The notes under the pieces were generated by a model, which was not told the DNA's origin, ran no database searches, and was given only the letters and a program-made list of their open reading frames with translations. A stretch of 62,880 nt of DNA, filler included, from Atractiella rhizophila (lineage: Eukaryota): assembly GCA_021432655.1 (NCBI GenBank). It is 5 parts of 5 records of this genome, joined end to end, with 100 filler letters (N's around TTAATTAATTAA, not from the genome) between each part and the next. Parts side by side here need not be neighbours in the genome. Positions count along the whole stretch, not along the records: positions 25,309 to 55,899 come from MU271327.1; 4 more parts are not named here. One strand, given 5' to 3'. Shown piece by piece: positions 24,311-55,999 of this stretch (the first letter of the stretch is position 1; every line of letters begins with the position of its first letter). Made by a program: the position numbers and the translations under genes.

Positions 24311-24513
24311 AAGATTCGGCGACGCTGACGGCAATACGCAGCCGCAGTTTGCCTTTTCCCTACAGATTTCAATTCCTATTGATGACAATATCTGTAAAGA
24401 ACCAGCAAGGTCCCCAGGTCGGGTTTTGATACAAATGCACACCCTCTTTCCTTTCTGCGCCCTTTTCCCTCATCTACTCCCTTTCCAACCCTTATCAACA
24501 AACCGCACAGACA

Positions 24514-25208
24514 ATGGCACACTGGTTGACAGATGAATGGCTGGAAACGGAAGCGAAAGGTTCCATTAAAGATTCTGAGCTGCTCAAGGTCTGTTTTATT
24601 TCATTCCTTGCTTACAGCAGCCACTTCTAATCTTTGAATTTTCAGATTCTCAAATCCCTTCCGATGGAAGAGAGGGAAAAGATCATGCAAGTCTGGCTTG
24701 CATCTCTCCCTCTTTCACAGACTGAGGACGACACTTCTCTTGCACCCCTTTCCCCAAGTTCTGCCCACCATCTCCTATCTTCTCAACTCCAGCCTATGTC
24801 AAGTCCCGGACTCAACAATGTTGATATTAAACCGAAGATTGTTTATGATCTAGATACCGACGATGAGAAGGAAGAGGAAGAACGGTCTTTCGCTCGTATG
24901 TGTGTGGAGGAGGAATGCGGGTACAGCGGTTGTGATGGAGAGCCCGTGGTAAAGCTGTTTGGACCAGTGAGTGATACTTTATATGCACGTTATTGGGGTA
25001 AGAGGTTGCCACAGGGGAAACCAAGTCGACGAAGCCCCATTTACAACAATACCCAGTTTGTGGGTTGTCGCGGCTTCAATGACAGCCATGGACAATATGT
25101 CCACAAGTTCAAACGCATCACAGCTCGTCACGGACCTCATCGCCTTAGCCATCATTTGCAAGACCTGTGGAGTAAGTCCATCTCTTATTTGGGACTGTGT
25201 TGTTCAAA
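24514..25208 (+). CDS. Hypothetical protein, truncated by gap
   Basis: ATG exon, GT-AG intron, then a ~190-codon open frame running to the gap. Confidence 0.45.
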
Positions 25209-26433
25209 NNNNNNNNNNNNNNNNNNNNNNNNNNNNNNNNNNNNNNNNNNNNTTAATTAATTAANNNNNNNNNNNNNNNNNNNNNNNNNNNNNNNNNNNN
25301 NNNNNNNNCTTGACATCGTCTCGTAGAGCTCGGACGTCAGAGCGAAGGAAGGAGACATCGCCTTCGATACCTACGAGTCGCAGTGAGGCTTCTTCTTCTT
25401 CCCTTGCATCGCCATTCGAAGTGACGTTGTGCGAGTCGTTTCCCATGCTTCCTACCCTATCTTCTTGTTCTTGTTCTTGTAGCCAAGTAATTCTTTCCAG
25501 TGGTTATCCTAACCTGTATAGCTATCCCACTTCGCTCCTAGCTCCTCTGATGTGGCTCTGGTGTATAGCGTATTGCAGTGATAATCAGCGAGAATAAGGA
25601 AAGCGAGAACAGGCAGGAGAAGGAGAGACGGAAAGCAAAGTCAGAAAGTAATAAAGTCGGGGACGTGCCGCCAGACTCGGAGGTGTGCGCGAGTAACGCA
25701 GGATTTAAGACGCCGAGCGAGGTGGAGACAGCGCCTTTCGTTGTCCCTACAATGGCCATTCTATTACACCACAGCTATCGCGCGTTATCTGCTTAGCTTC
25801 CTTTATCTCGCCTGGTTTGTTGTTGCGGTCCCAAGCCTGAGGGGAACTTTAGATTCGCCGCTTTCTGCCAGCATGAGATAATCATGGCGGCGTTGTGTAT
25901 GGACTCACTGCCGGTGTTGTCGCAGATAAATCAATAATCAATAATCCATTCTTGTGAGGGGCAAGGTAGAAAAGAGGCAAAACACGAATACTGAGCTGGA
26001 ATCATGATATCTCCAACTCCTGATTATGTCCAAATCAAAACCGTGAGCAAATTTACGCTCTCCACACTGGAGTAGTCGCCATCGCCAACACGATACGCAG
26101 GCGGTATCTCCCAACCTACTGCTCCCTCCCCAAAATAACAATCCAACTTCCCCTCCGAATAGCACCCAGACGCCTAGACGCTACCCGCTTTGTTTTATGT
26201 CCATTCAAATTGTATTTATGTCCAGCGACTACCTCACGTCCCTCTGAGTATACCGGGTAAGCGGGATCCGGTCTGTATCCATCGGTCTTCACTTTCGTGG
26301 CTGGTATTGAGAGGACGTTCGAAACACGAACAAGTTTGCTTCCACTTGTCGATTGAATTTGGAATAGATTCCAAGGGAGAGAAGACGAAAGCAGGAAGAG
26401 TGGCAGTGGTGGATCTCTCATCAAAGCCCAAAG

Positions 26434-27861: not shown

Positions 27862-28496
27862 CCTTCACATTCGACTCTTCACCGTTTCTTGCAAAGTTGC
27901 GTTGCAACTGAACAGTGCTGGAAGAGGCAGCTTGAGAAGAGGCAGCTTGAGGAGAGGAGAGTCAGGAGGAGATGGTGGTTTAAGCAGGACTCTATTCCCG
28001 GCAACCTCACGGGTACATTCTCACTAAGGAAGCGGCATTTTGCTTGAATATAATAAATAAACAGCTTCGCGCCAATCGTGCCCTGATCTTCTTCAGCTAG
28101 CTCACTGCACCCTGTGGTTGTCGTTGTCGAATTCAGCAGTCTCACGCCATCCTCGGATAGACTCCGGCTACGTACAGCCGGAGAGAAGAGGTCAACGTGG
28201 GCATGGTGGTTGGCGTACGACATCGAAGGTGCCTTCCATCATCAGACTGGAGGGAGAAAGCTGGAATGGTATGTCATCGACATGTGCTTTGACGACCGGC
28301 TTGAAAAACCGGAGGAGTTATGTTATGGAGAGGACTCAAAGGGAAGGAGGCAACAAGACAGAGGGGCATTTTCGAAAGACATGGATTTTGGTGGGCGTAG
28401 AAGGCATAACATACTCTCTGCACAATGTCAACACAACCATCAAACGTGTAACCGACGTCGAAACGTAAGTAGGTAGTATCCGATCGAGGAAAGGAA

Positions 28497-29280
28497 CTAC
28501 AGCCTTCGTCCTCTTCGTCCACCCTATCCAGCCAAGCAACTCATCAGCCAACATGTCCATCTCCATCCCCTTCACTTGCACTTCCAGGAAAAGTTCAGGG
28601 ACAGGAGAAAGAGAAAGAACGAACCTTCCTCCTCGTGCTATCCGTCGGGATAGGCGTGACATCCTCAATCCTCCCAATCTTCATTCCCGCCCTCGCCAAA
28701 GCCCTGAGAGCGCTCTGTGCTCCAGGTCCTGGCGTCTTCGTACCCGTTCCTCCCGTCGCTCGGATCTTAATGTGTAGTGCGGTTACGCCGAGTTCCTTGC
28801 ACCGAGCAGCTACATCTTGAGAAGCCAACATGGCGGCGTAGGGAGACCTGTTCCATTTGGAGGACACCAGTCAGAGGCGAGAAGTTGCGAGAGAGAGGTT
28901 GAGGTGTGGTGAGAGGAGAGATGGGAGAAAGGGAGAAGGCATACGATTCGTCCCTGTCCGCCTTTACTTTCATTCCGCCTATCCCACACAAGAACCATCA
29001 ATACCAGTCCACTCCACATATCCACCCCCAATGTTTCGTATTTCTGAGTGGAAGACGCACCGGTAACCCTGGAGATAGTTTCCTTCCCGCTCAAATCGGT
29101 GACATGCACAAAGGTATCATTGAAGCTCGCAAAGATGTGAGCGACGCCGAACACCAGCTCGCCCTCTTTGACTTGAGGACCGAGAGAGACGACCTCTTCG
29201 GGCTTTGCGACTCGCTTTCCTTTAGGGGGCTACTTGCACTGTCAGGAGGACTCTGCTGAGCAGAATGGGAGACTGACCAT
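28497..29280 (-). CDS. RPS14: 40S ribosomal protein S14 (uS11), copy 1
   Basis: [68 protein letters not shown]; 4 introns, first coding exon is ATG only. Confidence 0.96.
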
Positions 29281-30951
29281 GATGAAGGGTGGGATGGAGA
29301 AGTCGATCGGATGGACACGGGAAACAAATAACAAAAGCCTCGAGTTGAGAGGAAGGCTGAACCGTAGTCCATAGTCCTGTTTGTAATCTCGCCTCGTGTC
29401 ATAATGAGGTCTCGTGACGTCAATCCGAATTGACCTTTCTCTCCACAAATTGACCTTAGAATTTCCTCAACCACAGCCTTTTCCACGTTTCCGCCTACAA
29501 AGCTATACTCTGAGGTCGCTCGCTATTCGCCAGCTACAAGAACAGCGTTCTCAGATCACACCTGCACTTGGCACTGGAATTGGGAACAGCAGAAATGGCA
29601 TCGGCAGCCTTACCACCACCGTCACCAATGATTTTGCCGTCCGTGGTCGACGCTGGGAGCGCTGGAGGCAATGGAGAGAATGTAGAGTACGGACAGGGGA
29701 AGAAAGAAGGTAAGCGATCTCCTAATGCCTTGTTTGGAGAAATGTCGGCTCGCGAACTTTGCAGATTCGGGGTTGCTTTGAGCTTGTTCTTGTTTGAGAG
29801 AGCATTGGAATAAAGAAGACTGGCGTCCTGAGCTTAGACTCGACATTTCAGCTTGATATTGTGCTTGGTGTATGCAGGAGCTATGTTCAGATGCAACATG
29901 TCGTCATGCGTCACCAGCAAATCCATATCTACAACGTGGTGTCCGCATCCTGTATAACAAGAGGACGTCAAGTCAGAGAACATTTCTGTCTTTGCAATAT
30001 ATGGTACCTAGTTGTGTGCCTTTACAAACTCAAGTTGATCGCCATTGGACTATGTTCCACCTTTCATTCCTTATGAAGGATGTTTGTTAGAGATAGCGAA
30101 AGTTCAAGACTTTGTCTCTTTACCAGGCAGTACTTTTTGCGCCGGCTAAGTGACAAGTTGACATTATCGTCATGCACTTGCTTCCCGAGATTGTCGTGGA
30201 GAGATTTTGTACCAACTTGTGTGGGCTTATGAAGAAGCATATGGAGTCAGAGTCTTCTCTTTACCAGGTCGTGCGCTTTTGGAAAGCTTTACTGAAGAAG
30301 CGAAGGGAGTGTACGAAGGTCTCGCTTCCAGAATTTTTGACGTCGGTAATGTCATTGAGCTGATGACGACTCCCTCTCCGCAAAAGATATTATTGGATTT
30401 CTTCGTTGGTCACTGACTTTCCTCCATGAATGCAGGGATCCGCGCCCGTCGTCACCGCAAACGCACCTCTGAGCTCGCCTCTTCCACTCCTTCTACTTCC
30501 ACCTCCGCGCAACCCACAACACCTCAAACACTCCTCAACATGGCCTACGCCCTCCATCTCAGCATCCAGGGTTGTCGTTGTCGAATTCAGCAGTCTCACG
30601 CCATCCTCGGATAGACTCCGGCTAGGTTGCAGCCGGAGAGAAGAGGTCAACGTGGGCATGGTGGTTGGCGTACGACATCGAAGGTGCCTTCCATCATCAG
30701 ACTGGAGGGAGAAAGCTGGAATGGTATGTCATCGACATGTGCTTTGACGACCGGCTTGAAAAACCGGAGGAGTTATGTTATGGAGAGGACTCAAAGGGAA
30801 GGAGGCAACAAGACAGAGGGGCATTTTCGAAAGACATGGATTTTGGTGGGCGTAGAAGGCATAACATACTCTCTGCACAATGTCAACACAACCATCAAAC
30901 GTGTAACCGACGTCGAAACGTAAGTAGGTAGTATCCGATCGAGGAAAGGAA

Positions 30952-31735
30952 CTACAGCCTTCGTCCTCTTCGTCCACCCTATCCAGCCAAGCAACTCATC
31001 AGCCAACATGTCCATCTCCATCCCCTTCACTTGCACTTCCAGGAAAAGTTCAGGGACAGGAGAAAGAGAAAGAACGAACCTTCCTCCTCGTGCTATCCGT
31101 CGGGATAGGCGTGACATCCTCAATCCTCCCAATCTTCATTCCCGCCCTCGCCAAAGCCCTGAGAGCGCTCTGTGCTCCAGGTCCTGGCGTCTTCGTACCC
31201 GTTCCTCCCGTCGCTCGGATCTTAATGTGTAGTGCGGTTACGCCGAGTTCCTTGCACCGAGCAGCTACATCTTGAGAAGCCAACATGGCTGCGTAGGGAG
31301 ACCTGTTCCATTTGGAGAACACAAGTCAGAGGCGAGAAGTTGCGAGAGAGAGGCTGAGATGTCGTAACAGGAGAGATGGGAGAAAGGGAGAAGGCATACG
31401 ATTCGTCCCTGTCCGCCTTTACTTTCATTCCGCCTATCCCACACAAGAACCATCAATACCAGTCCACTCCACATATCCACCCCCAATGTTTCGTATTTCT
31501 GAGTGGAAGACGCACCGGTAACCCTGGAGATAGTTTCCTTCCCGCTCAAATCGGTGACATGCACAAAGGTATCATTGAAGCTCGCAAAGATGTGAGCGAC
31601 GCCGAACACCAGCTCGCCCTCTTTGACTTGAGGACCGAGAGAGACGACCTCTTCGGGCTTTGCGACTCGCTTTCCTTTAGGGGGCTACTTGCACTGTCAG
31701 GAGGACTCTGCTGAGCAGAATGGGAGACTGACCAT
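30952..31735 (-). CDS. RPS14: 40S ribosomal protein S14 (uS11), copy 2
   Basis: Same exon structure and protein as copy 1; differences in intron 3 and one synonymous Ala codon. Confidence 0.95.
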
Positions 31736-32889
31736 GATGAAGGGTGGGATGGAGAAGTCGATCGGATGGACACGGGAAACAAATAACAAAAGCCTCGAGT
31801 TGAGAGGAAGGCTGAACCGTAGTCCATAGTCCTGTTTGTAATCTCGCCTCGTGTCATAATGAGGTCTCGTGACGTCAATCCGAATTGACCTTTCTCTCCA
31901 CAAATTGACCTTAGAATTTCCTCAACCACAGCCTTTTCCAGGTTTCCGCCTACAAAGCTACACTCTGAGGTCGCTCGCTATTCGCCAGCTACAAGAACAG
32001 CCTTCTTAGATCAGACCTGCACTTGGCACTGGAATTGGGAACGGCAGAAATGGCATCGGCAGCGTTACCACCACCGTCACCAATGATTTTGCCGTCCGTA
32101 GTCGACGCTGGGAGCGCTGGAAGCAATGGAGAGAATGTAGAGTACAGACAGGGGAAGAAAGAAGGTAAGCGATCTCCTAATGCCTTGTTGGGAGAAATGT
32201 CGGCTTGCGAACTTTGCACATTCGGGGTTGCTTTGAGCTTGTTCTTGTTTGAGAGAGCATTGGAATAAAGAAGACTGGCGTCTTGAGCTTAGACTGGACA
32301 TTTCAGCTCGATATTGTGCTTGGTGTATGCAGGAGCTACTTTCAGATGTAACATGTCGTCATGCGTCACCAGCATATCCATATCTAAGGCGTCGTGTCCG
32401 CATCCTGTATAACAAGAGGTGACTTCAAGTCAGAGAATATTTTTGTTTCTACAATATATGGGTACCTAGTTGTGTGCTTTTACAAACTCAAGGTGATTGC
32501 CATTGGACTATGTTCCACCTCTTCGTTTCTCACGAAGGATGTTTGTTGGAGACAGTGAAAGTTCAAGACTTTGTCTCTTTACCAAGTAGTACTTTTTGCA
32601 CCGTATGGATTACAAGCTGCCAGTGCTCCATCGTCATGCGCTCGCTTCCCGAGATTGTCAGGGAGAGATGTTCTACCAACCATGCGCATGCTTCTGAGCC
32701 ATGTGGAGTCAGAGTCATCTGTTAGCAGGAGGTGCGACCCTTTCGAAAGCTTTGCCAAAGAAGCGAACGGAGCGTACGAAGGTCTCGCTTCCAGAAATTT
32801 TTGACGTCGGCGATGTCATTGAGCTGATGACGACTCCCTCTCCGCAAAAGATATTATTGGATTTCTTCGTTGGTCACTGACTTTCCTCC

Positions 32890-34401
32890 ATGAATGCAGG
32901 GATCCGCGCCCGTCGTCACCGCAAACGCACCTCTGAGCTCGCCTCTTCCACTCCTTCTACTTCCACCTCCGCGCAACCCACAACACCTCAAACACTCCTC
33001 AACATGGCCTACGCCCTCCATCTCAGCATCCGTCCCCGCCGTCTATCATCCCGGCGTCCAAGCAACGCATCCTCTTCTATGTTGGGATGGGAAGCCGGAG
33101 AGAGGGCGTTAGATGCCATTGGAAGCAGAATGAGAGGAAGAGGGAGAACGGTCGGCGAGGTCTTAGGATTGAAGGATACGAATGGGAAACATGTAAAAAA
33201 GGAAAAGAAGGAGAAAGCGAGACCGAGCGGAGTGGAGGTTAGGAGGGAGAGTGAGAATACTGAAGCGGCTAGTGAGATTGCAACGCCGAGTGATGTCGGA
33301 GATGCGGGAGCTGTTGTGGTCATTGATGAGGATGACGAGGTCGTGGCTTTGGACGATTGGGGAATGGGACTGGGATTTGGCGTCGGTGTGGCGACTAGTT
33401 CGATGAGGCTTCCTGGGGATGGTTTAGGGATGGGTTTAAAGATGGGAGAAGGGGAGGAGATATGTTTGCCAGCTGCCCCTCGTCTAGGACCAGTAGCAAG
33501 TCCGCAATTACAGCCTTCTCCTTTCATGGCGGCGATGTCTCTTGGCGCGGACTATTTTACCACCTCTTTTTCTTCCGCCTCCATATCCACTGAAACACCG
33601 CTCACCATCCCTCCTTCCACATTCTCCCCTCTCTTGTCCCCCGTCCCCTTCCTTCCAATCACTCCTCAACTCATCCCCCTCGGCAGCACAGGCATGATCG
33701 ACCCCTCACCTATGCCCCTGTCCCCGACGACGAAGACGGGAGATTACTTTGGACTGGCGAGGATAGCGAGCTTGAATAGGCATAAAAAGAAGCGAGCGGA
33801 GAGGGAAGGGAGGTTTGAAGACTCTGCGGCCGCGACACCGTTGCTACCCATCACCCCTCAACTGGGACCCACGAGCTTACTGACAGACCCTTCTCCTTTC
33901 CCTCTTTCGCCAGTGGGAACCCCCGAGTATTTTGGGATAGGTGGAGGACTGGGAAGAGCGGGAAGTCTGAAATCAAAAGCGGGGGCAATGGTGAAACAAC
34001 CTCCGACCATCCGCGAACGAAGCTTCGAAGGAGAAGAAGGGCTTTCTCAACGTCACGACGACCGGGATGAATCGGCACACGAGGTTCCATCTGGACCATC
34101 CACTTCAACCTCGCATCCACCGCTACCCCATCGTTCTTCGTCCCAGCGTCCAGACTGGGTCCCATACCTCCTTGTTGGCGAATACGGATATCGAGATTCG
34201 GTCACAGCTTGGGGAGGAATGGGAGGCCTCTTGGGACTGCTCTTTCACACTTTTGGATTAATCTTCTTCATCCTCTTCCATGTCGCAGACCTTCTGGCCG
34301 CAATCATAACTCCTTTGCTGGCGGCATTGGGAATTTATGTCTATGAGCCGCTAGGGATTGAGGAGGCGGAGAAGAAGGTGCGACGTCTGTCTGGTGGCTG
34401 A
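32890..34401 (+). CDS. Hypothetical Ser/Pro-rich protein with C-terminal hydrophobic segment
   Basis: 503-codon ORF; internal repeat P(F/L)LPITPQL...DPSP(M/F)PLSP...YFG occurs twice. Confidence 0.7.
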   Translation: MNAGIRARRHRKRTSELASSTPSTSTSAQPTTPQTLLNMAYALHLSIRPRRLSSRRPSNASSSMLGWEAGERALDAIGSRMRGRGRTVGEVLGLKDTNGKHVKKEKKEKARPSGVEVRRESENTEAASEIATPSDVGDAGAVVVIDEDDEVVALDDWGMGLGFGVGVATSSMRLPGDGLGMGLKMGEGEEICLPAAPRLGPVASPQLQPSPFMAAMSLGADYFTTSFSSASISTETPLTIPPSTFSPLLSPVPFLPITPQLIPLGSTGMIDPSPMPLSPTTKTGDYFGLARIASLNRHKKKRAEREGRFEDSAAATPLLPITPQLGPTSLLTDPSPFPLSPVGTPEYFGIGGGLGRAGSLKSKAGAMVKQPPTIRERSFEGEEGLSQRHDDRDESAHEVPSGPSTSTSHPPLPHRSSSQRPDWVPYLLVGEYGYRDSVTAWGGMGGLLGLLFHTFGLIFFILFHVADLLAAIITPLLAALGIYVYEPLGIEEAEKKVRRLSGG

Positions 34402-34737: not shown

Positions 34738-36439
34738 TCAACCACTCTTCGCTTTCTCAGCCGCCTCTGCCGCCTCACGCTCACGGTGCCACTACAAATT
34801 GATTAGCGAATCAAATATGGGAGAATAAGGTGAGCACTGACGGCCATGGTAATCTTGACCGCTTCCTCCATCGTTACCAATGGTTCATAACCAAGGAACA
34901 ACCTCGCCTGCACATCATCATTAGCCTAGCAAGAGGAAAGGAATAGGAGAAAGAAGCGCACCTTCTCAATGTTGAAATACCGATCGACAGTCATATAAGT
35001 GGCCGTCGCTCTTGTCAACGGCGCAGGCTGTCCCTTCAACCAACTCGCAACCTCTCCTCCCGCTCCAATAAACCAACTCAGGAATGCGGGAACGGCCGTG
35101 ATTTTCTTTGGGGAGAAACCATTGTAGGCCTTCCACAAGCTCCTAGCGAAATCCCAAAAGTAGATTGGCTCTCCATTGGTGATGAAGTAGACTTGACCAG
35201 CGATGGGAATTGGAGCATCGGGTTCGGGATAGTAAAGGTCAAGGGAGGCTGGGTGGAATTGATCGAACCTGTTCCGCGAGGAGGGCAGCGGGGGATCGAT
35301 GGGGAAAGAGGATGAGAGGGCTTGAGATACAGTGTAGGAAGGCGGTGGAAGTGTTTGAGAATTCTCGTTCACAAGCGTAAAATCGTGGCTTTCGCTATCG
35401 GAGGATTGATCAACGCCTTCCACCGTCCTTGAGTTGGGCATAGGACGTCTTTCCCATCCGATGTCAATGTCTTTTGAGCGCTCATCGAAGATGGACCAGT
35501 CCGTGATATACTTGTCCAGCTTCTCCATGGCGAGTAGATGGCCATGGACGAGGTTGTCAACGAAGGTAAAATCTTGAAGATTATCATTGGAGCCGATCTG
35601 GAAGCCGGTTTGCCCATTGTGGAGCGCCTGAAGTATGCGATAGGACACTTGACGGTCTCCAGGTCTAATACCTCATGAGCTACGAGAACTGGACAGATGC
35701 TGAGACATACCCAAAAATGCCGGACGGACGAATAGCGCAAGTCAACAAGCCATCTTTTCCGTTTGCAGCGATGACGGCTTGCTCGGCCAAAGCCTTGAAA
35801 TGGACGTCAGTGAGAACACAGGGGATTACGACAATGTTCGAATTTTGAACAAAAGGCGGAAATGTACACGATCTAGAGAAGATAATCTAAGGATTACCCT
35901 CGAATCTGTTCAACACGTACGTGGCTGACCAATTCGCAATCGTGGATCTGAAAGGAGATTTGGGAGAAATTCTGCTCTCAAATCTTTCAAAGCGTATAAC
36001 CCCCAAGAGAACTTGTAAGAGGAAATGTGGCACAACTTTAGTTCTGAGCTGGAATACAACGATACGCCTTCAGATAAAAGCTTTGAAAGACATTATTTGA
36101 ATGATTCCGAACATCCAACCAAACGTAGTCACACGAAGTTGGAAGAGAGAGGCATCTCAAGCATTCTGCAGCTTGTTTTATTGTGTGATTGAACAATCTC
36201 GCTCAACCTTCGATCTAGAGAAGGCAAGTTGATTGCAAATCAATACAATATCTTGAGTTGTCCATAACTTCTCAGGTACCTTCGCGAAGTATTCGGTACC
36301 ACAGTGTAGGATGGCACTTGAGCCCCGTTCACAGGTCAACGGCCCGCCTGCACATACGATGTACAATAAAGATCAAGCGGTCACCAACTGTAAACTTTTT
36401 GGGTAGAGCAAGACAATTCTACAAGATGGTAAGTGTAAA

Positions 36440-36480
<41 letters not shown>

Positions 36481-37943
36481 ATCCAACCAAACGTGACTAC
36501 ACGAAGTTAGAAGAGAGAGGCATCTCAAGCATTCTGCAGCCTGTTTTATTGTGTGATTGAACAATCTCGCTCAACCTTCGATCTAGAGAAGGCGAGATGA
36601 TTGCAAATCAATACAATATCTTGAGTAGTCCATAACTTCTCAGCTACTTTCCCAAAGTAATCGGCACCACAGCGTACGATGGCACTTGAGCAACGTTCAC
36701 CAGCTCAAAGGCGCGCCTGCACGTATGAGGTACAATAAAGATCAAGTGCCGACCAACTGTCAACTAGTTAGGACAGAGCAAGCCAACTCTGCAAAATGGG
36801 AAGTGTAAACGACTCTCAGCCCAGAGCTGAACATTAGACCACGGCGGGCGAGATCCATGCTCCTTGAGTTCTTGAGGTCAAACACAAGCTCATGTTCATC
36901 TGAATCAAGGGACCAAACTTGAACTGTTCAAGTGTTGCAGTCAACGATGACTTTTGGATGAACATTGTGCTTTTCTGAAGATTGAAAGCTGTGTTATCAG
37001 CTTTAGATCCAAGGCAATATGCGCCGAAGCTACAGTCATGTACTAAATAATGATGATGCCAACACTCCATGACAACTCAGTCAACAATTGTCAAATTGCT
37101 TCTGCTCAAACTCAAGAACCCAACATGAAATCACTAAGGACACAACTCTGGTCTCGCGTTCTTTCCAGTATTGCACTCATAAGGGAGAAAGAGAAAGGAG
37201 CTCAGTTTCCTCCACAATTTCATTTGAAATATTCAATCCTCAATGACACCTAAAATTGATCACATGCAGGACTCCTCACGTTGAAGGTTACGGTGGCCAA
37301 AAATGGCTGTCAGACAACATTATTTGTGCCTGTCCAAGTAAATAATGCGTGCAAAGGTACGCCATTTTGAACGTACTATGGACGGGGACGAAAAGTAAGA
37401 AAAGATTCTGAACTTCACACATCTCTCTCTCTCTTTCTCTCGCCTTCAGATACTAGACACTAGACGTACCTTTGTCCTGTTATAATCATCCGGCCAAGCA
37501 TCCGGATAGGGAACCCTCTCGTCCACATTCCTCAACCCCACCCCAGAATCCAACACCTCATTCCCCAACACGACCCCACTCGAGCTCGTATACACAAACT
37601 TCCTAGCCCCACGCTTCACACACCAAGCGATAGTATGTTCCGTCCCCTTCACATTCACAGCGTCGCAAATCTCCTTTCCGCTAGCCAGGTGCGGAGAAGC
37701 GGTATGGAACACGACGTTGGGGTGCGGATCGAGTTTGAGGTCTTCGAAGGGCTGGGTCAGGTCCAGTTTGTGGTATGTGCACCGAGGAGGAAGCGGACTC
37801 GTCGCTGGCGCGGGGAAGAGGTCGAGGGAGTAGATGGTCGCTGTGCGGTAGCGGGAGGAGAGCGCCTTGAGCAGGTTTCCGCCGAGGAACCCGCTGCCGC
37901 CGATGACGGCGTAGACTTCGGGTGGAGAGGGGTTGTAGGGCAT
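34738..37943 (-). CDS. ERG26: C-3 sterol dehydrogenase/decarboxylase (3-beta-HSD family) with a 1676-nt intron at 35794-37469
   Basis: VIGGSGFLG, VFHTASP, VNVKGT, VYTSSSGVV, YNRTK|ALAEQ, AIRPSGIFGPGD, DFTFVDNLVHGHLLA, YFITNGEP. Confidence 0.9.
36110..36810 (+). repeat. Two ~330-bp direct repeats (36110-36440, ~36478-36810) separated by A39
   Basis: Both units start aacatccaaccaaacgt and end aagtgtaaac; the A tract spans 36441-36479. Confidence 0.9.
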
Positions 37944-39028
37944 CGTCCTGAGTGGAAGAGGGCGACTTGGAGTGGCTCAAATACTGGCTCAAATACGTGG
38001 CTGGCGGAGCGAAGCAACAATCCTCAGGATGCTGGATGCATCAACCAGCTTCAACTAAGCTTCGAATGAGAAGGTCTGTTGATCTTGTTAATTCGTGTAG
38101 CAAGTTCCTGAGCAAGGTCGGGCAACGTAGCTGGTGTAGAACAGGTTGAAATAAGACCATTAATGCAATGGAGGCATTTATAAAGGTGTTTCGAAAGAAA
38201 GAACATGCTTGTGCCCAATTCACTCGGTTGCGACAAGGGGTACCCCAGTTCAGTATAAACACGTTGGTAGTATCAAAGATATGGAATGCTGTTCTCTAAC
38301 TCTATGGTTAGTTTACATGATAATGTTGACGGAAAAGCATAATACTGCTCTAAAACGAGTTATCACGTGTTTTGTAGCAACATCTCATCTCCCACACTAC
38401 GAATGGAGGAGAAGGCGTCTAAAGCTGAGAGGAAGGAGCTTACCATATAAGGGGAGAGAGGCAGCTACGTTTATCTACAAAGTTAGGCAACTGATGCGAC
38501 AGAGCTTTCCAAGACCATTATCTAAACCCATTGTAAATCACTGCCTAAAAGAACAAATGATTCTTTTAACTCTCTCCGTTATTGTTCCATCAGTGAAGAA
38601 CAATACACGAGACAAAGCCGACCTTGTCACAGAATATATTTGCAGTCCGCTTTGGTACGCTATTTCATGGCCCTTGGATCACTCCAACTTGGAGGTATCG
38701 ACACTTACGATTTGAGGACAGATGCTAGATTCTGTCGCGCTATAAAGTGTGTCTACTGTCTGCCTTTAATCAACAGCGCCTAAGCACGCCCGGAAAGCGA
38801 GGTGCTCAAACTCTGCTAATGCCTGTTTGACAACATGCGAATAATATTTGCTAAAGTACAATTTCTCGAACAATGGGCTTTAGGGCTCTGCTAGGATTTA
38901 TGCCAATATTTAAACCCGAATACCGAATGCCTCAGTATGGTCAACATGTTAACATGTCTTGAATTGCCCTATTATTACGGTTTGTCATAATTGCACCCAG
39001 AACAAATCAAAGTGCTTACCTCCGCCTT

Positions 39029-39930
39029 TCAATGTTTCCCTCCAGTTTTACCTCCCCTCACCGCCCTCGGCCTCCCCCCTTTCTCTCCGCTCCTTCTCGT
39101 GCCCATCCCATGAATAGATCCTCGTCCTATAGAACCGTTAGAGCCGCTTCCCCTCCTCGGATTCGATCCAGGAATCGTGGACAAGATGTCGTTGCTCTCC
39201 CCTCGGAGACGACGAGCCAGGAGGATATCTTTTGGCATTACTGTGACGCGTTTCGCATGGACGGCACATAACTGTACCGCATGATGATGGGTCACCATGT
39301 GCGAGAGTGTCACGGCGACTGCCTCAATAGGGAGAACTCACATTCGCGTCACTGAACAAGTCGACCAAATATTGTTCAGCCGATACCTTCCTCACACCAA
39401 AGGAACAGGGTGGTCTTCATACAAGCTCTATTCAGGGAGGAAGAAGATGGAGACAGACCTGCAATGCGTCCATTGCAGACACTTGGAAACGGATGTCGGG
39501 CTTGAATTCGGTCGCTATCTCTCTAACGAGTCTTTGGAACTACATCCGCCCACCAAAAGGTGTTGAGCCCATCAAAACCTCCACTCTAGTTAGCAGAGAG
39601 AAGGGATGAGGAGGACGCACGGGAAGTTTCCTGATCAGGAAATCTGTGCTTCCCTGGTATTTCCTGATCTCCCTCAACGCTACAGTTCCGGGTCTATAAC
39701 GGCGATGCTTCGAACCAGCCTCTGTTCCATCGAATTTCTTCAGCAACATGTATCCCTTCACTGGTAGAAGGGAGCAAGCAAAGGATACGGCGCACCCTTT
39801 TTGTTTGTTTGACTCAGTTTCTTGTCCGTTTTGATTGGGATATATTTTCTTGCTTGTTGCTGGCAGCAGAATGTCGGACCTTTTCGACGTTGGGAAAAAT
39901 GAGAGAACACAGTACTTTGGTGCGTGCCAT
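39029..39930 (-). CDS. Divergent histone H3 variant with RG-rich C-terminal extension, 6 exons
   Basis: Spliced product [127 protein letters not shown] plus extension. Confidence 0.88.
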
Positions 39931-39999
39931 GCTGGAACTTCTAAACCTGGCGAATCAGGTTCATGTATTGAGACTTGAAGATATAACTGGAAGAGGATG

Positions 40000-42055
40000 T
40001 AACCAGGAGGTGAAGGCAGCGAGAGGGGAAGGCTAACAGACGGAAAGCTCAGGAATTGCTTCTCAGGAGTTTGTAGTGAAAGTAGTTCACGAGCTNNNNN
40101 NNNNNNNNNNNNNNNNNNNNCTCAGGACTACTTATGTTAGCATGTTAGCATGTGAGTCTACTTCCTGGCGGACAAGCGTAACATGAAGTAAGGCGAGTGA
40201 GCAACGCGTAAGTTCGCTTGTTCGCGAACATGCAGAGGTAGGAACGGGCGAACGTTCCGGCGTTCTTCGCTGGTACCTTTGTCCGCTAATCTTTCCTCTT
40301 CACGTTAGGTTGCACGAGACTCCAAGTAACGATGGCATATAGCTAGCTCTAGGAAGGAAGGGAATTCACGCTGATAGCTTGAAGTGCGGCGACGTAGGTT
40401 CCCGGGAACGAGGCAAAATGTTCAGTTTTGTTTATAAATTCTGAACCCCTCCGAACGTAGTGCTTGGGACGAAAGGCGTATAGGGCAAGCAGTCATACTA
40501 ACGACAAAGGGGAACGCTCAGAACGGCGAGACGCGTTCACTTCACATACGCGCGATTAGTTCGATGAAGGACACTTGCTACACGGTTGTTGCCGAACCTG
40601 ACGCTTCAACAGATAGTGGACAGCTGGAAGGGTTTTAACTCGCGCCGAAGGAAAGTATGTTTTGGCTTCGTGGAGGTGTTTTCCACCCAACAGTCTAAGG
40701 TAGAGGAAGACCTTCGCTAGCACAGGACTGGCAACTGGAAGGGGCGACACGGGAGCACAACGTCTACCTTTGACCGTGTTGAAGGAGTCTACTTAATATG
40801 TAGCAGCGCAGTTGAACCTCGGCTGCACCCCTCTGACTTCTTGTTCGCTGCAGCGCTAGGGCTTCTTCTAAAGAGGAGAGGGCAGCGGGGAGCTATTTTG
40901 TAACGTTAGGTTCAACAGCTTATGGCGAGCTAACATGGAGCGGTAGCAAAACGACCTCGCAAACGAAGCTTTACTTCGTGGCAAGAGCATGCTGCTATTG
41001 GACAGCTCGAGTCTCGTCTTCGACTTCAAACTCTTTGTAGATGACGTTCCAAGCAGAAGAATATGTGCCCAGTCTAAGGACTTGATTACGCTGTTTGTCT
41101 GCAGCGCGGTGAACGTAAGCTTGTTATAATGAGCTTGCTCTATTTCTGTCACCCTATGCGCGAAGTTTGCCTTTTACCTCCACTCGGATTTCGAACAATG
41201 GGAGTATTCTACGCATCCTGAATGCTTCCGCATCTAGACCGAATAAATGTGGTATAGACAACCTTAGACCAAACGAGGTTTGAGACACCCGGGATTTAAT
41301 GTAGGACTACTTTTCCGGTAACAACTGGCTGAGACGTCCTATAACACGCTAGTTATGGAACCGCCCAAAACGGACGGTTGCGAAATAGGAGTGCCCTTCC
41401 TGTTCCCTCTGCTCTTAGAAGTAATGAATTTGATAATCTCAGTACGGAGAGGAGCAGGAGCAGGTGAGGCCTTCCGTTGAAAGCTGTTGAATAGGTAGTA
41501 GGAAGTCGAGTGTGTACGTAAATAACTAGTTAACGGAGCCGGCCTGCAAACCTTTCGCTACGAGCTTGACCGAGACCTTGTAAAACCACGCGAAACCGCC
41601 TCTTCACATTGGCTCGCTCTCACCGACTCTTTCGCTGTTGAACGGGTAAACTAACATTCAGAGTAAGGACAGGAACCGTTTGTCCGAGTACGATTAACAC
41701 CGGGTTCGCTGCTGACAGATTGAGAATGTGGACAGCTAAACCACCGAGGGAGACGACATGCAGGTGTAAGAGTTTGTCCGGGGTAATAGGATTTGCCTAC
41801 AAATCAAGCCTCTTTGTAATGTTTGCTAAGGAGGGTGTTCTCCCGTCGTACCTAACAGCAGAGAAGTGTCTATAGTGTAAAATAAGATGTAATTAATGCC
41901 TCCGCCGGCTTCTAGAGTGTCGGTAGCTGCCTGTGGAGGTCACGTGCTCTGTGGTCGATACCCGGCTTAGATGGAAAACTGCGCAACTTTTCTTTCAGCT
42001 GCGCACTGCATAAAACTCATAAAACGGACAATATGAAAAGCTGAACTTTTACTGA
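40000..42055. other. Mirror-oriented (reversed, not complemented) segment flanking a 25-N gap; left edge approximate
   Basis: Gene-like only when complemented without reversal; 40064-40095 is the exact reverse of 42056-42087. Confidence 0.88.
40496..41860. CDS. Zn(II)2Cys6 transcription factor readable only in the left-to-right complement; 3' end approximate
   Basis: Complement from 40496 reads MIAVSP-CESC-RSAQVK-C-MRANQATS-CERC-ANNGLD-C (CX2CX6CX8CX2CX6C), followed by GT...CTRAY...AG introns. Confidence 0.8.
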
Positions 42056-43202
42056 TCGAGCACTTGATGAAAGTGATGTTTGAGGACCTGACCGAACAAG
42101 CCAAGAAAGAACTGCTTGATTGTGTTGAAGTCACACCGATTTACACCTCCTCCTTGTCTCACTATGCAATAGCTGTCAACCAGCCGCAATTTAAATAAAG
42201 CATCAACTTCTAATGAACTTCACCCGCCAAACCGACGCCGCCGTTCCGTTGCCACTTCCTAGAATGGCAGGCGGCATTTCGGGAAGTAGAGTGGCGACGT
42301 AAGCAGCCTCTGAAATCCCATCGCTCGAACCAATTCAAACCAGAGTCTCTGAGCGGTCATATTTTGAACGGCATCGAGAAAAAGCGGGCAAGGAAAAGGT
42401 TCCGAAAGTTTGCATTGGTGCAACGCCGTTCCAACAGCACACACCTGAGGCTGATAATGAGTTGTAAATGCGAAGGTATCTGCGATGGATGCTGTCACCT
42501 TGGTACCTCGGATCATAATCCATGCAGTTGTGTAGTATACAGGTAGTACGCGTAGTAAAGATACATAACCCCGAAAACGCTGAAGAATCAGTCTGTCTGC
42601 TATCATGTTATCTTCGAGTTCAGCGCGCAAGTTGCAACAGCTGGAAATGCGGAAGCATCCCATTGTAGAACCGATATCACATCAAATCTTACATATTGTG
42701 GATGGAGAGAGCGCTTTGCAGAAATGCTCCTCACGTCGCCTTCAGGGAGAAGAGCACTATAGAGCGCTAAGGACTGCGTGTTGACATGATACTCACCTGA
42801 GTTTCCAGTGGACCTGCATCGAACCTGCTAAACTTGAAGTTTTGACATTTGGCCGAATCTCCAAATAAAATGCTGCGAACATGGCCCAGGTCTTCGTGTC
42901 TTCGTTGACATGCCTGTACTGTACGAGTCCAATCTTCACGCTCATAGAGGCAACTCAAGGGGGCGAGTAATCCCACCTGAGGGGACATTCTCCACCGTGC
43001 TCCGTTTCCGAATTCTGAGCCACAGCTCCACTATGTAACTAACTACTCAGATTTCCACACCGCGATCCCCACCACGCAAGAGGAGGTGGAGGGGCTGCCA
43101 ATTTGGGCATATAAAAGGTGGCACTTCATCAAATCAATCGCCTACTGTCCCTTTCTTCATCTCAAGCAAACTATTGACACCAAGTACATCATTGCACTCA
43201 AA

Positions 43203-44914
43203 ATGGCAAGTGATAAGAAGAAGATGCCTTATGGTTCGAGATATTTCCTGTATGATGTACTTGTGCTAAGGATGATCCACAGTGAGATTGGGGAATTCTG
43301 GATTGAAGGTTTCAAAAGTATGTGGACTCTCGTCTGAAACCTAAGAGCGTCGTTGACGATAGATGTGCTTAGATCATCTTAGGTTGCATGAGCTATGGTA
43401 TGCTCTCCTCCCCTTCTCTGAAAAGGGTTATAACTCCCTTTCCAGGTAGTCCCGAGTGGCAGGACTGGGTGTTGGGAGAGGAAGAGGGGATCAAGCACAT
43501 CAAGGCTGCTTATGAGCTGGGGATCAACACGTTCGAGTGAGTTCATTTCTGGTTGTCCCTCTCTATGATGGAACATGACTTCGCTTTCTAGTACCGCCAA
43601 CGGTTCGTTCCCGATTTTTAATTGGGGATCGCTGCTGAAAGCACCTGGGGTTAGTCTATTCTTCCGGTCTCTCGGAAGTCGTTCTGGGAAACGCGATCGA
43701 GCAGTTGAAGTTACCGAGAGAGAAGATCGTGGTCATGACGAAGGTTCTTCTCACTCTTCCGTTTACGAAACCGTTTCTGATCGAGTAACAGGTATACTCT
43801 ACAGTTCATGACGAACCAGGGAAGAATGTTATGGCAACTTGTCCTGGAAACCCCGACGATTGGGGCTATGTCAAGTACGCGTCCTTCCGTTCCCTTGCTT
43901 TCTCCATTTCATGAACCAATTTGGGTATAGTCAACACGGTTTGAGCCGAAAGCATATTTTTGCCAGTGTGCAAGCATCCTTGAAGCGTTTGAAGCTGGAC
44001 TACATCGACTTGCTGCAATGTCCGTCTGTGCTTCACGCCATCTTCGAACAGCTAAAGACTTTTTGTGGTAAAAGGCCATAGGTTCGACTATGAAACGCCA
44101 ATCGAAGAAACGATGCAAGCTTGCATGATGTGGTCCAGAAAGGATGGGTGCGATACATTGGGATGGTGCGCTTTATCACTTTAACCCCCCGCGTTTCACA
44201 ATCTAACTATCTGAGTATGAATCTACCAGTCCTCCTGCCATGCCTATCAGTTCCATGCCATGCAGAACTATGCCATTTCGAAAAACCTTACTCCTTTCAT
44301 CAGCATGCAGAACCATTATTCGGCTATCTATCGTGAGGAAGAAAGGGAGATGATGCCCACTCTGAAGATGTATGGTGTTGGCTGTATTCCCTGGAGTCCA
44401 CTGGGTACGTTCGTCACACCCTCGCTTCCGTCCCGCTGAAGCTCGCGATAACATGACGCTCTGGGACGTAGGTCGAGGTCTCCTCACGCGACCTTGGGCC
44501 CAAAACAAAACCACGGAAAGAGGAAAGTCGGATAAGTTCCTCAGCCTCATGGTGAAAGATGCTACCGGAGAAAGCGACGAGAAGATCGTGAGTGCGGTAG
44601 AACAGGTGGCAAAGAAGAAAGGCGTGTCCATGGCGCAGGTATGGTTTCCTTGCCATCATCAACCCAGATGGAATTTGGCTGACAGAAAGGTAGATTGCAA
44701 TCGCCTACTTGTTGCACAAGCCTGGAGTTACAGCTCCAATCTTTGGGACGACAAAGCTTGAGAGCGTGTACGAGCTCGCCGCAGCTGTCAACATTACCTT
44801 GGATGAGGCTGACATTAAAGCGTAAGCTGTTTCTCATCTTTCAGATAACTTCGTTAATTCTCGGATAGAATCGATGAGCCATATACTCCAAGAGATGTCT
44901 TTGGGCACACTTGA
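43203..44914 (+). CDS. Aldo-keto reductase (aryl-alcohol dehydrogenase-like), many introns
   Basis: RLGNSGLKVS, LGCMSYG, GINTFDTANVYS, GLSRKHIFASV..SLKRL.LDYIDLLQ, RYIGMSS, MQNHYS, PWSPLGRG. Confidence 0.92.
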
Positions 44915-45006
44915 GAGCTGTTTATGGTTTGCACGGTTTGTTCTGGCAGAGAAATGCGATAAGCGAAAGGGCGAATATGTACAAATACTCAATGGCGAAG
45001 TAGCAC

Positions 45007-47680
45007 TTATTGAACGCCGTAGCTTTCCTCCCCAGTCATGAGCTGGCTTTTAGATGACCTTTGCTCCGCCCCTACATACCCCTGCCATGTCATCCCAGAA
45101 TTCCTCACTGAGGCGAGGGCTGCTTGAGCTTTGAAGCCATTAGCCAAAGCTTCTTCGAGGCCGTCAGCCCAAGTCTCGCCATAAAACCCCAATGTGCGAG
45201 TTGCTTCTATAATCGCGCCAACGTCGTTCAACTTTGCGAGTCAATCGAAGCCGCTCGTATCGTCATTCAAATACTTCCAAAGATAGGCCATTCCTCCTGG
45301 CAATCGACGAAGAGCGGCAACAGGCCATGATCTTGTCGCTAGTCCAGGGGAGACGGCGACTCCGATTGCTAATCTCTCTTTTAATTTCGGTCTGAAGATA
45401 ATAAGGATCACTCGCCTTTAAATGAGCTTTAAGATAACCCTCAAGGCAATGAATTATTTGATTACCTTCTTGTTTTGCCCTGCCCAAGAAGAGTCAAGGC
45501 CAAGGAAGAATGTTGACTTTGAGCTCCCTCCACGTAAGCGAAATAATCAGACAGAATCTTCGCATTCATCATGATATTAAATATTGGCTTGTCGCTGGCG
45601 TACGCGGTGAGAGCAGAGCAGGAAAGAGACGCAATAACAGACGAGATCCAGACGGTCTCTCTCCGCACTTTGAATCTACTTGGAAAGCCAACCAATTTCG
45701 ATCGTAGTCGATTGTGCATATCGTTCCAGTCTCTGAAAAGTGTTCTTCATTCACCGAACTCAGCAAATGAGGACTCTGAGTTTGCGGCACTGCAATTTTG
45801 CATCTTTTTATCTGTGGGAGACGTTACAGAGATAGGTGAACAAGGGATTTGACGCACAACTTAGATTGGATTCCTTTTCTAGGGCAAATTGGACGACATG
45901 GAGGAATTTCTCTTCATTCATCGATGGTTCTAATTGATTGATGGAAGTGGAGGACAAATAAGTCCCCAAAGGCCATGAAGTACCGGACAGCATTGACAGG
46001 AGATCGGACTCAGTTCTGGGTGACAATTAGCTTCAGTACAATCCGAAGCAAGTGACACACATGAGTAGTGTCTCGCCAGATCGCCCATAGCGTTGACAGC
46101 CACGTAGGCTGACAATATCCATCATGAACATAACGTGCACACAGTATTTGTCAATGAAGGCTCCAAGTCGTTGTCAATCATTTGTCTAAAAAGCTATTGC
46201 CATCGTAAATTGGCTTTCTGGCAGGACGAGAAAGTCACGCTACGGGCAAATGAAACTGCAATAACGACGAGTGCAACCCTTCCTGGAAATGATTTCCCTC
46301 TGAACACTTGTCGTTGTTCCTATCCCAGATCATGAACAGTGACTCGAACTACGATGCCATGTAGCAGCTTACCTTTTTTCATCTTCCGACGATCCCGAAT
46401 CCGAGCAAACTTTCCATATTTATTGCTCGTGCATTATTCGGCATACATTTGGAGGGAGATTTTGTCGTCAACTATTGCAAGCAGGGTCTGAATTGACTCG
46501 CTGGGTGGGACTAGCACATTGTAGACCAGTGGTACAGCTGCCGTTGTGTCCCACAAGGAGGACAGGAGACACCCCGATCTCTGACATAGAGAGTGCATAG
46601 CGGCTTTCATACCAGTTGACCTCTCCTTTTCACCGAACTTGCAACACAGAGTCGTATGGCAGGTACGAAACGGTGCTTCTGTGTTGTCGCTTAGAGAAAC
46701 AAGCAGTCACCTCAATGCCATGATGGAGATGTTGAAAGTCACTCACCACATTCGCAGAGAAAGAACGTGGAAGGTTCCTTCGCTGGCATATTCAAAATTC
46801 CAGATCTTGCGAGCTTGCGAACCGTGCCAGTGGACTTGAACTTGCCCTTCTCCTTCAGTTAATTTAGGCCACCTTCGCCTACTTCCTCGAACTCTTCTCT
46901 TCGTTCCTTGTTCTTTCTGGAAATCAAACCAATAGAGCTCCGAACAAAGAGCAATTGCACAATTAACACGTGACACCAGAGATTATTCTACCTTGATTTG
47001 CGTTCGTTGCTGTTTGTCTCTTTCTGAAAAGAAAGCAAAAGTTGATATGCATTTGCATTCGTACCTTACCCATTTATCAACCATTGGATCCCTGAACTTG
47101 CCTGAGCTTCTAGACTGTGGTGACAGCTCAACGCCAGATACGAAAATCACCAACCATAACGCATGCAGGTATCACATTGCCATTCTTGAATTCATCAATT
47201 CATGAATTTCAATACCTTTTCGACTGGCTATAAATAGATCTTGAAAGTTCCAATGTTACTTCCGGATGTAGTGAGCTAGGTCCGTTTCGCTAAACCTTCC
47301 ACCATCACCCTTCCTCCAGCTGCTCTGTGCCCCGCTTGACTCTCAAGCTCCCTTGTGGCTACTGCTTTGTTTTGCCTTGCCCGTAGCTAAGGATTCGGCA
47401 CCGGTTGTCTGAGTTTCCTCGGTGAGTGGTCGTGTGCACTTTGAAGCCTTTCAACATCGACTTCAGACAACGCAAACTGGCTTGTCACGGTGTCATAGAA
47501 TTTCGATAATTGAAACCCGTGAGGTCTGTGAAAAGGCTTGAGTCTCGTTGTTTCCTCTTCAAATTTACCAGCAGCTTCCATTCTTGAAACAAAAGCTGGT
47601 TGCTGACTGTCCTGCGATGAGTCTTTCGAGCCTTGCAAATCTGGTACTTTCAGTTGCCAGTTCATATCAAGTCGAATCAT
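45007..47680 (-). CDS. Hypothetical multi-exon protein (structure not resolved)
   Basis: Series of short minus-strand ORFs with intron-like boundaries; no family recognised. Confidence 0.35.
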
Positions 47681-53580: not shown

Positions 53581-55999
53581 GGTTCCCTTGTTAAGAAGGT
53601 AAGAGACATGTCAGTAACCTACTAATAATCCATGTAATATTGGAAAAGGTGCCTACCGCATCACTCATGAGCGGTTGGGGAGAAAATTGGGGCGAGTACA
53701 AGAAAAGATGTTGGTGGTTCTGAGGTCGTGAGAGGTTGATGACTTTTAACGATGATGACAAGGTCGGGCTTTGCATCTCCCAACTTTCCTCTAACCTGGG
53801 ATTATACTCTCTGCCCATATTCGTGTGTCTTCTTCCTGCGGTTCTCTTCCCTTTTCTTGCAAACTTGTTCGTGAAGCAATCCCTGGGATTTTACCTCGCT
53901 AGTTGTCGACTTTTCACAGGATTTGGGCTAATTTCTGGGGCAAAAGAGATAAATGCAATCCAAGGTCGGCCTAAATCATTCACTTATCGAAGCAAGCTTT
54001 CGCAGTCGCAGGGCAACGATCTGATATCTCGCAAGTTGAAATTCGGAACGCGGTTGAGCGAGAGGCAAAGATTGTCTCTAACCGTCTCCTCGCCTTGTCA
54101 TCACAAATAGGGCACGCGTTCTCTCCCACGCTGCCTTCCTGCCGCTTCAATCTCTTTCCAACCCAATTTCCTCCGCCCACGTCCGTCACACAGGAATTCT
54201 TCTTCATTAATCCGATTGATCCCCACCGAATTAAGTCAGGCCCGTACGGATCAGACAGGTGTGGGTCTCGCACGTTCCTCGCTCAGTGCCGTTGGCACAT
54301 TGAGGACTTAGAAACCATCCCGACAGAAGGTATTGACCTCCGCATGGGCACAAAGTGGATACAGTTGGGACCTCGCGTTCTCTCGGAGAAGCGGCGGGAC
54401 GAGAGCATTGCAACTTGAGAGGGTCGGCGACGAGCGGGATGATGAACGGCTCGGTAGGGTTGAAGATTCTACCGGATTTGTTGTTGCTGTCAATTGGAGG
54501 CTTGCCGCAGTAGGATATGATAATANNNNNNNNNNNNNNNNNNNNNNNNNNNNNNNNNNNNNNNNNNNNNNNNNNNNNNNNNNNNNNNNNNNNNNNNNNN
54601 NNNNNNNNNNNNNNNNNNNNNNNNNNNNNNNNNNNNNNNNNNNNNNNNNNNNNNNNNNNNNNNNNNNNNNNNNNNNNNNNNNNNNNNNNNNNNNNNNNNN
54701 NNNNNNNNNNNNNNNNNNNNNNNNNNNNNNNNNNNNNNNNNNNNNNNNNNNNNNNNNNNNNNNNNNNNNNNNNNNNNNNNNNNNNNNNNNNNNNNNNNNN
54801 NNNNNNNNNNNNNNNNNNNNNNNNNNNNNNNNNNNNNNNNNNNNNNNNNNNNNNNNNNNNNNNNNNNNNNNNNNNNNNNNNNNNNNNNNNNNNNNNNNNN
54901 NNNNNNNNNNNNNNNNNNNNNNNNNNNNNNNNNNNNNNNNNNNNNNNNNNNNNNNNNNNNNNNNNNNNNNNNNNNNNNNNNNNNNNNNNNNNNNNNNNNN
55001 NNNNNNNNNNNNNNNNNNNNNNNNNNNNNNNNNNNNNNNNNNNNNNNNNNNNNNNNNNNNNNNNNNNNNNNNNNNNNNNNGATCAACAGACAACACACAG
55101 TGAAGGAACACTTTGACAACTGGCTTCCAAGGTTGCAGCGGCCAGATTGAACAATCAATAGATCATTTGAACGCGGTTAACAGCGCAAAGTTATGACAAG
55201 AATGTTCTGGACTTGTTGAGGGCATGTTGCTCCATGCAATCCTAACAGTATTGATGACGGAGTTCCGCCTACGGTTTGAGGGAAACGTCAAAGAAACAAC
55301 GGACGGGACTTTTCATGACTTTTAAAGTCAACGCCCGCATTCATTTGCTGTACCTTCCTTACATGCACTTCCTCCATGTTAGCGCTTCTGGCTCTGCCAT
55401 GAAAAACGTGTTGACCGGCTTCCCGCTCCTGAAGTCGTGCTGCAAAAGAAGAGAAGTATGCATGCACAGTGATGCATGCAAAAACTGGCATGGACACGAA
55501 CGCGACGACATTATTCAAAATACTGTTTACGCGGCTCCGATTCCCGTCCGCTCTGCTGCGGGAAAACAGCGCAGGAAACAGCATATGTGATCCAATGATT
55601 AGATATCAATATTAGTTCATCAATATTAGTTCAATATTGATCAATTTCCACGGCTGAATGTTAGGTGGTAAATATTGCACCAACCTCAAATCTTCTCGAT
55701 AGATAATATGGCCATATTTTGGCGCGGCGTTATAATCGAGCGCACAACAAGGAGAACGTTTCAAAACTCAGGTATACTGCACACGGTACCCTTCGTGACC
55801 TTGAATTTCTTGCGTTCTGGATTGGTTTTGAGCGAATTCGTCGATCCAGCGAAAGACTTCATGATGCCACTGTAAGGAGTTCTTCGGGTTGAGGACCTGN
55901 NNNNNNNNNNNNNNNNNNNNNNNNNNNNNNNNNNNNNNNNNNNTTAATTAATTAANNNNNNNNNNNNNNNNNNNNNNNNNNNNNNNNNNNNNNNNNNNN

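Follow-up and report, generated by a model that had tools for sequence, protein, structure and literature searches.

A plain-reversed block beside a scaffold gap in an Atractiella rhizophila assembly record, and the predicted Zn2Cys6 transcription-factor gene stored within it

In natural DNA the k-mer statistics stay the same when a sequence is reverse-complemented, whereas plain reversal alters them. Ordinary misorientation in an assembly places the reverse complement of a segment in the record, and such a segment can still be aligned and translated, whereas the block described here is reversed only, so that as written it matches nothing and translates to nothing. Composition-matched decoy sequences are commonly produced by plain reversal. 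No polymerase or ribosome is known to read a complementary strand in the parallel direction, and therefore the question raised by an apparently mirrored gene is why the record looks mirrored.

The window, that is, the whole stretch of DNA analysed, comprises 62,880 nt of Atractiella rhizophila (assembly GCA_021432655.1). Its plus strand reads tac taa cga caa agg from position 40496, and the base-by-base complement, read left to right from the same position, opens with ATG. The original prediction had placed a Zn2Cys6 gene invisible to six-frame translation at this point, and the peptide that it quoted is the complement-only reading from the ATG at 40496. This reading contains the six-cysteine binuclear zinc-cluster motif, CX2CX6CX8CX2CX6C, at 40514-40603 of the window (regular-expression match in the mirror frames), and the cluster starts at residue 7, six residues beyond the earliest ATG of the frame. 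A later stretch quoted in the prediction was also found, in a different frame, at about 40886-40975.

A relaxed form of the motif (C-x2-C-x6-C-x5-12-C-x2-C-x6-8-C), searched by regular expression over the 62,880 bases, gave one match in the six mirror frames. The same search returned no match in the natural six frames over all 62,880 bases and none in 150 simulated windows generated with a second-order Markov model, and the mirror-frame match is therefore more than chance would give. We also used a stricter, PROSITE-like pattern with a small residue before the first Cys, a basic or polar residue after the second Cys and Arg, Lys, His or Gln three residues on; it matched once in the six mirror frames and not at all in the natural six frames of the 62,880 bases. 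The window holds no full zinc-cluster motif in natural orientation. Natural-orientation matches to the first half of the motif at 38983 (plus strand) and 47843 (minus strand) lack the second half and were discarded as spurious. Invisibility to six-frame translation was borne out by a Pfam search of all 27 ORFs of 40 aa or more that the block surrounding the motif contains as written, none of which had a match at E ≤ 0.001. The match of one of these ORFs to Pox_A32 (E 0.042; 13.7 bits against a cut-off of 22.8) was taken as chance.

The orientation of the sequence was analysed with a direction score, which compares each block as written with the same block reversed under a strand-symmetrised 4th-order Markov model, with every test block excluded from its own training. 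Over 124 blocks of 1 kb the score had a mean of +19.0 (sd 8.9). It was positive in 120 blocks and negative in four, which are consecutive and span 40001-42500 (-13.3 at 40001-41000, -12.1 at 40501-41500, -15.9 at 41001-42000 and -5.3 at 41501-42500). Models of order 3 and order 5 returned four of the 124 blocks and five blocks as negative, respectively. With 400-nt windows, 23 of 625 were negative; an unbroken series at 39901-41901 accounts for 21 of these, and the two found elsewhere were marginal (-4.3 and -1.0). A cumulative score based on 5-mers and 6-mers peaked at 40063-40066 and reached its bottom at 41991-41992. The k-mer statistics of this segment agree with the rest of the record only once it is reversed.

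The left contig, which is naturally oriented, ends in 32 nt (40064-40095) that are the exact plain reverse of 42056-42087, and in a search of the window for plain-reverse 14-mers this was the only match outside low-complexity sequence, with all remaining matches lying within 36439-36481. A scaffold gap of 25 N (40096-40120) forms the left edge of the block, and the right edge at 42087/42088 has neither a gap nor a linker. The plain-reversed block, reversed and not complemented, occupies 1967 nt at 40121-42087. The mirroring, which had been described for the gene, is not limited to it: by the direction score the entire block runs backwards.

Mirroring of the whole window was considered and rejected. 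The natural frames contain stop-to-stop ORFs of 572, 506 and 468 aa and 142 ORFs of at least 100 aa, whereas the longest mirror ORF (267 aa) runs through a stretch of N and is no better than those of shuffled sequence, and the mirror frames contain 69 ORFs of at least 100 aa (mononucleotide shuffles; longest ORF 188 aa on average, 44 ORFs of at least 100 aa). Natural ORFs of the window have Pfam matches to eukaryotic housekeeping domains, including His-tRNA and Trp/Tyr-tRNA synthetases, Ric8, Utp14, ribosomal S11, 3-beta-HSD and histone.

Several other features were observed in the window. The Ric8 (synembryn) domain at 16163-17814 is split across two overlapping minus-strand ORFs in different frames, which cover profile positions 3-171 and 183-440; the split represents an intron or, alternatively, a further 1-nt frame error of the assembly. 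At 28175-33031 the sequence is duplicated in tandem almost perfectly, with a period of roughly 2455-2464 nt; identity between the copies is 100% over 300 nt and 99% over 236 nt. The duplicated stretch holds two copies of a gene of the ribosomal S11 family (minus-strand ORFs 28813-29229 and 31268-31684). The duplication may be real, or it may reflect a repeat that the assembly collapsed or expanded. The largest contig contains a 555-N gap at 54526-55080, beside which the direction score suggests no mirrored block.

Contigs from X1 and X2, two public runs of one sample that contain 0.67 of the sampled words of 36001-46000, were aligned to positions 38801-43300 of the window as written. To the left of the block, in the nine bins that end at 40150, their depth was 104.7-477.4, and to the right, starting with the bin at 42101, it was 108-482.8. 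Between these, the 12 bins of 40151-41950 all had zero depth on both strands, and cover was partial in 41951-42100. The contigs fit the window up to 40095 and fit again from 42087, with non-fitting letters beyond both points, and continue beyond 40095 without a gap. Behind 40095, all 30 letters of the loose end agree with the window read backwards from 42055 to 42026. The loose ends that precede 42087 correspond to 40151 to 40122 read backwards, with 28 of 30 letters matching in X1 and 29 of 30 in X2. When the loose ends were compared with the whole window as written, on either strand, the best matches reached 18-20 of 30 letters. Read support for the true order comes from these two edges, at 30 letters each, and for the interior the evidence consists of the direction score together with the zinc-cluster motif and the splice signals. 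The public contigs carry the stretch in the opposite order, which contradicts biological hiding. What stands of the proposed hidden Zn2Cys6 gene is a GAL4-type six-cysteine coding sequence in the complement-only reading; that the gene is hidden in the organism does not.

In the flanks of the block, fixed SNPs and 1-nt indels separate X1 and X2 from the window, such as an extra G after 38882 in all contigs, and the two runs may therefore derive from another strain or haplotype and not from the source reads. Across 38801-43300 they also show many positions with two variants, each at roughly half the depth. Together with the fixed differences, these positions suggest a heterozygous or dikaryotic organism, or a strain other than that of the assembly. 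Two further runs, X3 (from a relative) and X5, cover neither the block nor its edges and are uninformative either way.

We consider it highly probable that 40121-42087 is genuine genomic DNA stored in plain reverse after the 25-N gap, and that the cause is a file or assembly error and not hidden biology. Differences between strains do exist, as the SNPs and indels of X1 and X2 in the flanks demonstrate, and a block that is real as written would require that the organism, or this strain, carries a genuine inversion or rearrangement of the chromosome compared with the X1/X2 strain. The reverse complement of such a block would align on the minus strand, yet the depth was zero across the block; the loose ends match the plain reverse in 28-30 of 30 letters, against 18 of 30 for the best minus-strand match; and the direction score, which is blind to real inversions, changes sign in the block. 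In addition, the strand polarity of DNA makes it chemically impossible for breakage and rejoining to reverse a segment plainly in place. The flip of the direction score, the zero depth and the plain-reversed loose ends refute an inversion, to which we assign practically no probability. It is also very improbable that the zinc-cluster pattern arose by chance in non-coding DNA with no gene there. The frame breaks in the reading would fit such an origin, as would a codon bias too weak to confirm coding, the nonsensical model obtained from an exon-chain search and a zinc-cluster call made by motif pattern and not by HMM score. Against it stand the absence of the relaxed motif from all simulated windows and of both motif forms from the natural six frames, the position of the cluster directly behind the first ATG, where it is followed by well-formed GT..CTRAY..AG introns joining open frames, and the independent scoring of the whole block as reversed natural DNA.

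The stage at which the reversal occurred is a separate matter. A deliberate or accidental change made after release of the assembly, during preparation of the window (a decoy or control segment), would accord with the right edge at 42087/42088 having no gap, with the 100-nt stop-codon linkers as other marks of post-processing in the window and with the common use of plain reversal for making composition-matched decoys. We regard this as possible but on the unlikely side, and an assembly-stage event fits better with a block whose first base is also the first base of a contig behind a gap, and in which the 32-nt overlap between contigs is contained. The record was clearly assembled by script, since four identical joins of 100 nt, each consisting of 44 N, TTAATTAATTAA and 44 N, occur at 23345-23444, 25209-25308, 55900-55999 and 61309-61408; this was counted in favour of an artefact. 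The linker TTAATTAATTAA provides stops in all six frames, and the window was joined by script from no fewer than five contigs, of which the one at 23445-25208 has only 1764 nt. Stitching of contigs with a linker containing this six-frame stop string is documented in passages of two sources (10.1101/2023.02.08.527609; PMC2394751).

For the origin of the plain-reversed block as an error of the record, we infer the following course. The original scaffold would have consisted of the left contig up to 40095, 25 N and the right contig, which would have opened with a 32-nt repeat of the end of the left contig, as is typical of an unmerged overlap, and whose first 1967 nt would be those that the record now gives in plain reverse. 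A sequence assembled on the opposite strand, perhaps an extension of the right contig leftward into the gap, was presumably complemented without being reversed before it was pasted in, either at gap filling or in later handling. This slip would yield a plain-reversed block adjoining the old contig end without a gap, and would make the overlap with the left contig unrecognisable, so that a token gap would be left; the overlap would have been missed and the gap kept because the block was complemented but not reversed. The gapless right edge at 42087/42088 counts against a simple wrongly oriented contig, for which a gap or linker is expected. The responsible step may lie in the assembler, in the scripts of the submitter or in the later preparation of the window. 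It is conceivable, though we think it improbable, that complementing without reversing is a systematic fault of this assembly, with a plain-reversed block at every gap extended from one side. In that case many genes throughout the genome would escape annotation as well as any six-frame or alignment search of the public record.

The predicted Zn2Cys6 transcription-factor gene occupies 40496-41894 and would lie on the minus strand of the true genome; in the record it is readable only as the complement from left to right. Its frame has the earliest ATG at 40496, and its last open frame covers 41439-41891, followed by a stop at 41892-41894, so that the gene end at 41860 given in the original prediction is wrong. 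The best-formed candidate for the first intron, chosen by splice consensus alone, is an 81-nt segment at 40684-40764 with a GTGGGT donor, a CTGAC branch site and a CAG acceptor. In the model with this intron, an in-frame TAA at 40895-40897 stops the reading after 106 residues, and the frame break anticipated in this region is accordingly genuine, at about 40880-40897. Alternative acceptors for the first intron would end it at 40840 or 40846 (157 or 163 nt) and keep the frame. A 50-nt candidate intron at 41050-41099 (GTTCGT donor, CTAAT branch site, CAG acceptor) would join two open frames, and a further, optional candidate of 53 nt lies at 41655-41707 (GTAAGT donor, CTAAT branch site), its use determining the C-terminal frame. 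A second frame problem, somewhere between 41231 and 41525, requires a 208-nt intron, of which the GTAGAT donor is weak, or else a correction of one base. To read the Zn2Cys6 gene as a whole without interruption, one would have to accept introns of 157-208 nt whose signals are weak, or correct the frame by a single base at two places. Canonical splice signals are confined to the un-mirrored strand of the block. A codon-usage search for exon chains, trained on the Pfam-supported ORFs, proved unreliable and was set aside; it spliced through the zinc cluster, and its frame scores were nearly equal.

Assembly indels are a plausible cause of the frame breaks, because the flanks show 1-nt indel differences from the public contigs. 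The gene could also be a pseudogene, since its reading is not clean, with the stop at 40895-40897 and the frame problem between 41231 and 41525. In the true genome the predicted gene would encode an ordinary Zn2Cys6 factor from the minus strand, and would stand in tandem with an H3-like histone gene to its left. As judged from the motif, the protein would bind DNA through its N-terminal cluster like other zinc-cluster factors.

The neighbouring H3-like gene, with a histone fold and four introns, lies on the minus strand at 38883-39725 and is naturally oriented, as supported by Pfam and by an X3 contig. The Pfam Histone match (E 6.1e-08) falls on the minus-strand ORF 39543-40094. One X3 contig of 564 nt skips segments of 51, 70, 72 and 81 nt with CT..AC ends, which correspond to four minus-strand introns. 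The single open frame of the gene (ORF 39543-40094) extends for about 120 residues ahead of the histone-fold match, and the gene (38883-40095) may encode a centromeric H3 variant. Its promoter is garbled in the record because the region upstream enters the mirrored block.

These results remove a tempting false lead, as a gene "invisible to six-frame translation" is not a biological phenomenon here: the apparent "hidden" gene is of practical use as an error report and is not a biological feature. The error in the record is concrete, and it conceals one predicted transcription-factor gene from gene callers, BLAST and read mapping, together with the sequence upstream of the histone-like gene. An annotator using the record as stored would very probably overlook the Zn2Cys6 gene. 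The direction score placed the fault within about 100 bases and needed no reference, and could be used to screen whole assemblies for errors of the same class.

In its motif, the predicted protein resembles the GAL4-type Zn2Cys6 factors (Zn_clus, PF00172), to which it was matched by motif pattern: the CX2CX6CX8CX2CX6C cluster is situated at the extreme N-terminus, and, as in Zn_clus, an Arg follows the second Cys and a Lys precedes the third. The likeness extends to the setting, with short spliceosomal introns and eukaryotic housekeeping genes nearby. Unlike GAL4-type genes, the predicted gene has a frame broken at least once and cannot be read as written. The block that contains it is comparable to the reversed-sequence decoys used as negative controls, in that length and base composition are kept and every biological signal is destroyed. 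In contrast to decoys, only 1967 of the 62,880 bases are affected, the reversed stretch sets in where one contig gives way to the next and takes in the overlap between them, and the block bears no sign of deliberate reversal. The phrase "reversed but not complemented" leads, among the matches listed, to human and mouse gene regulation and to regulatory elements, not to assemblies. The block further resembles the orientation errors of draft assemblies, such as misoriented contigs and false inversions, in being a discrete wrong-way segment that adjoins a scaffold gap and in that independent contigs disagree with the record exactly at its edges.
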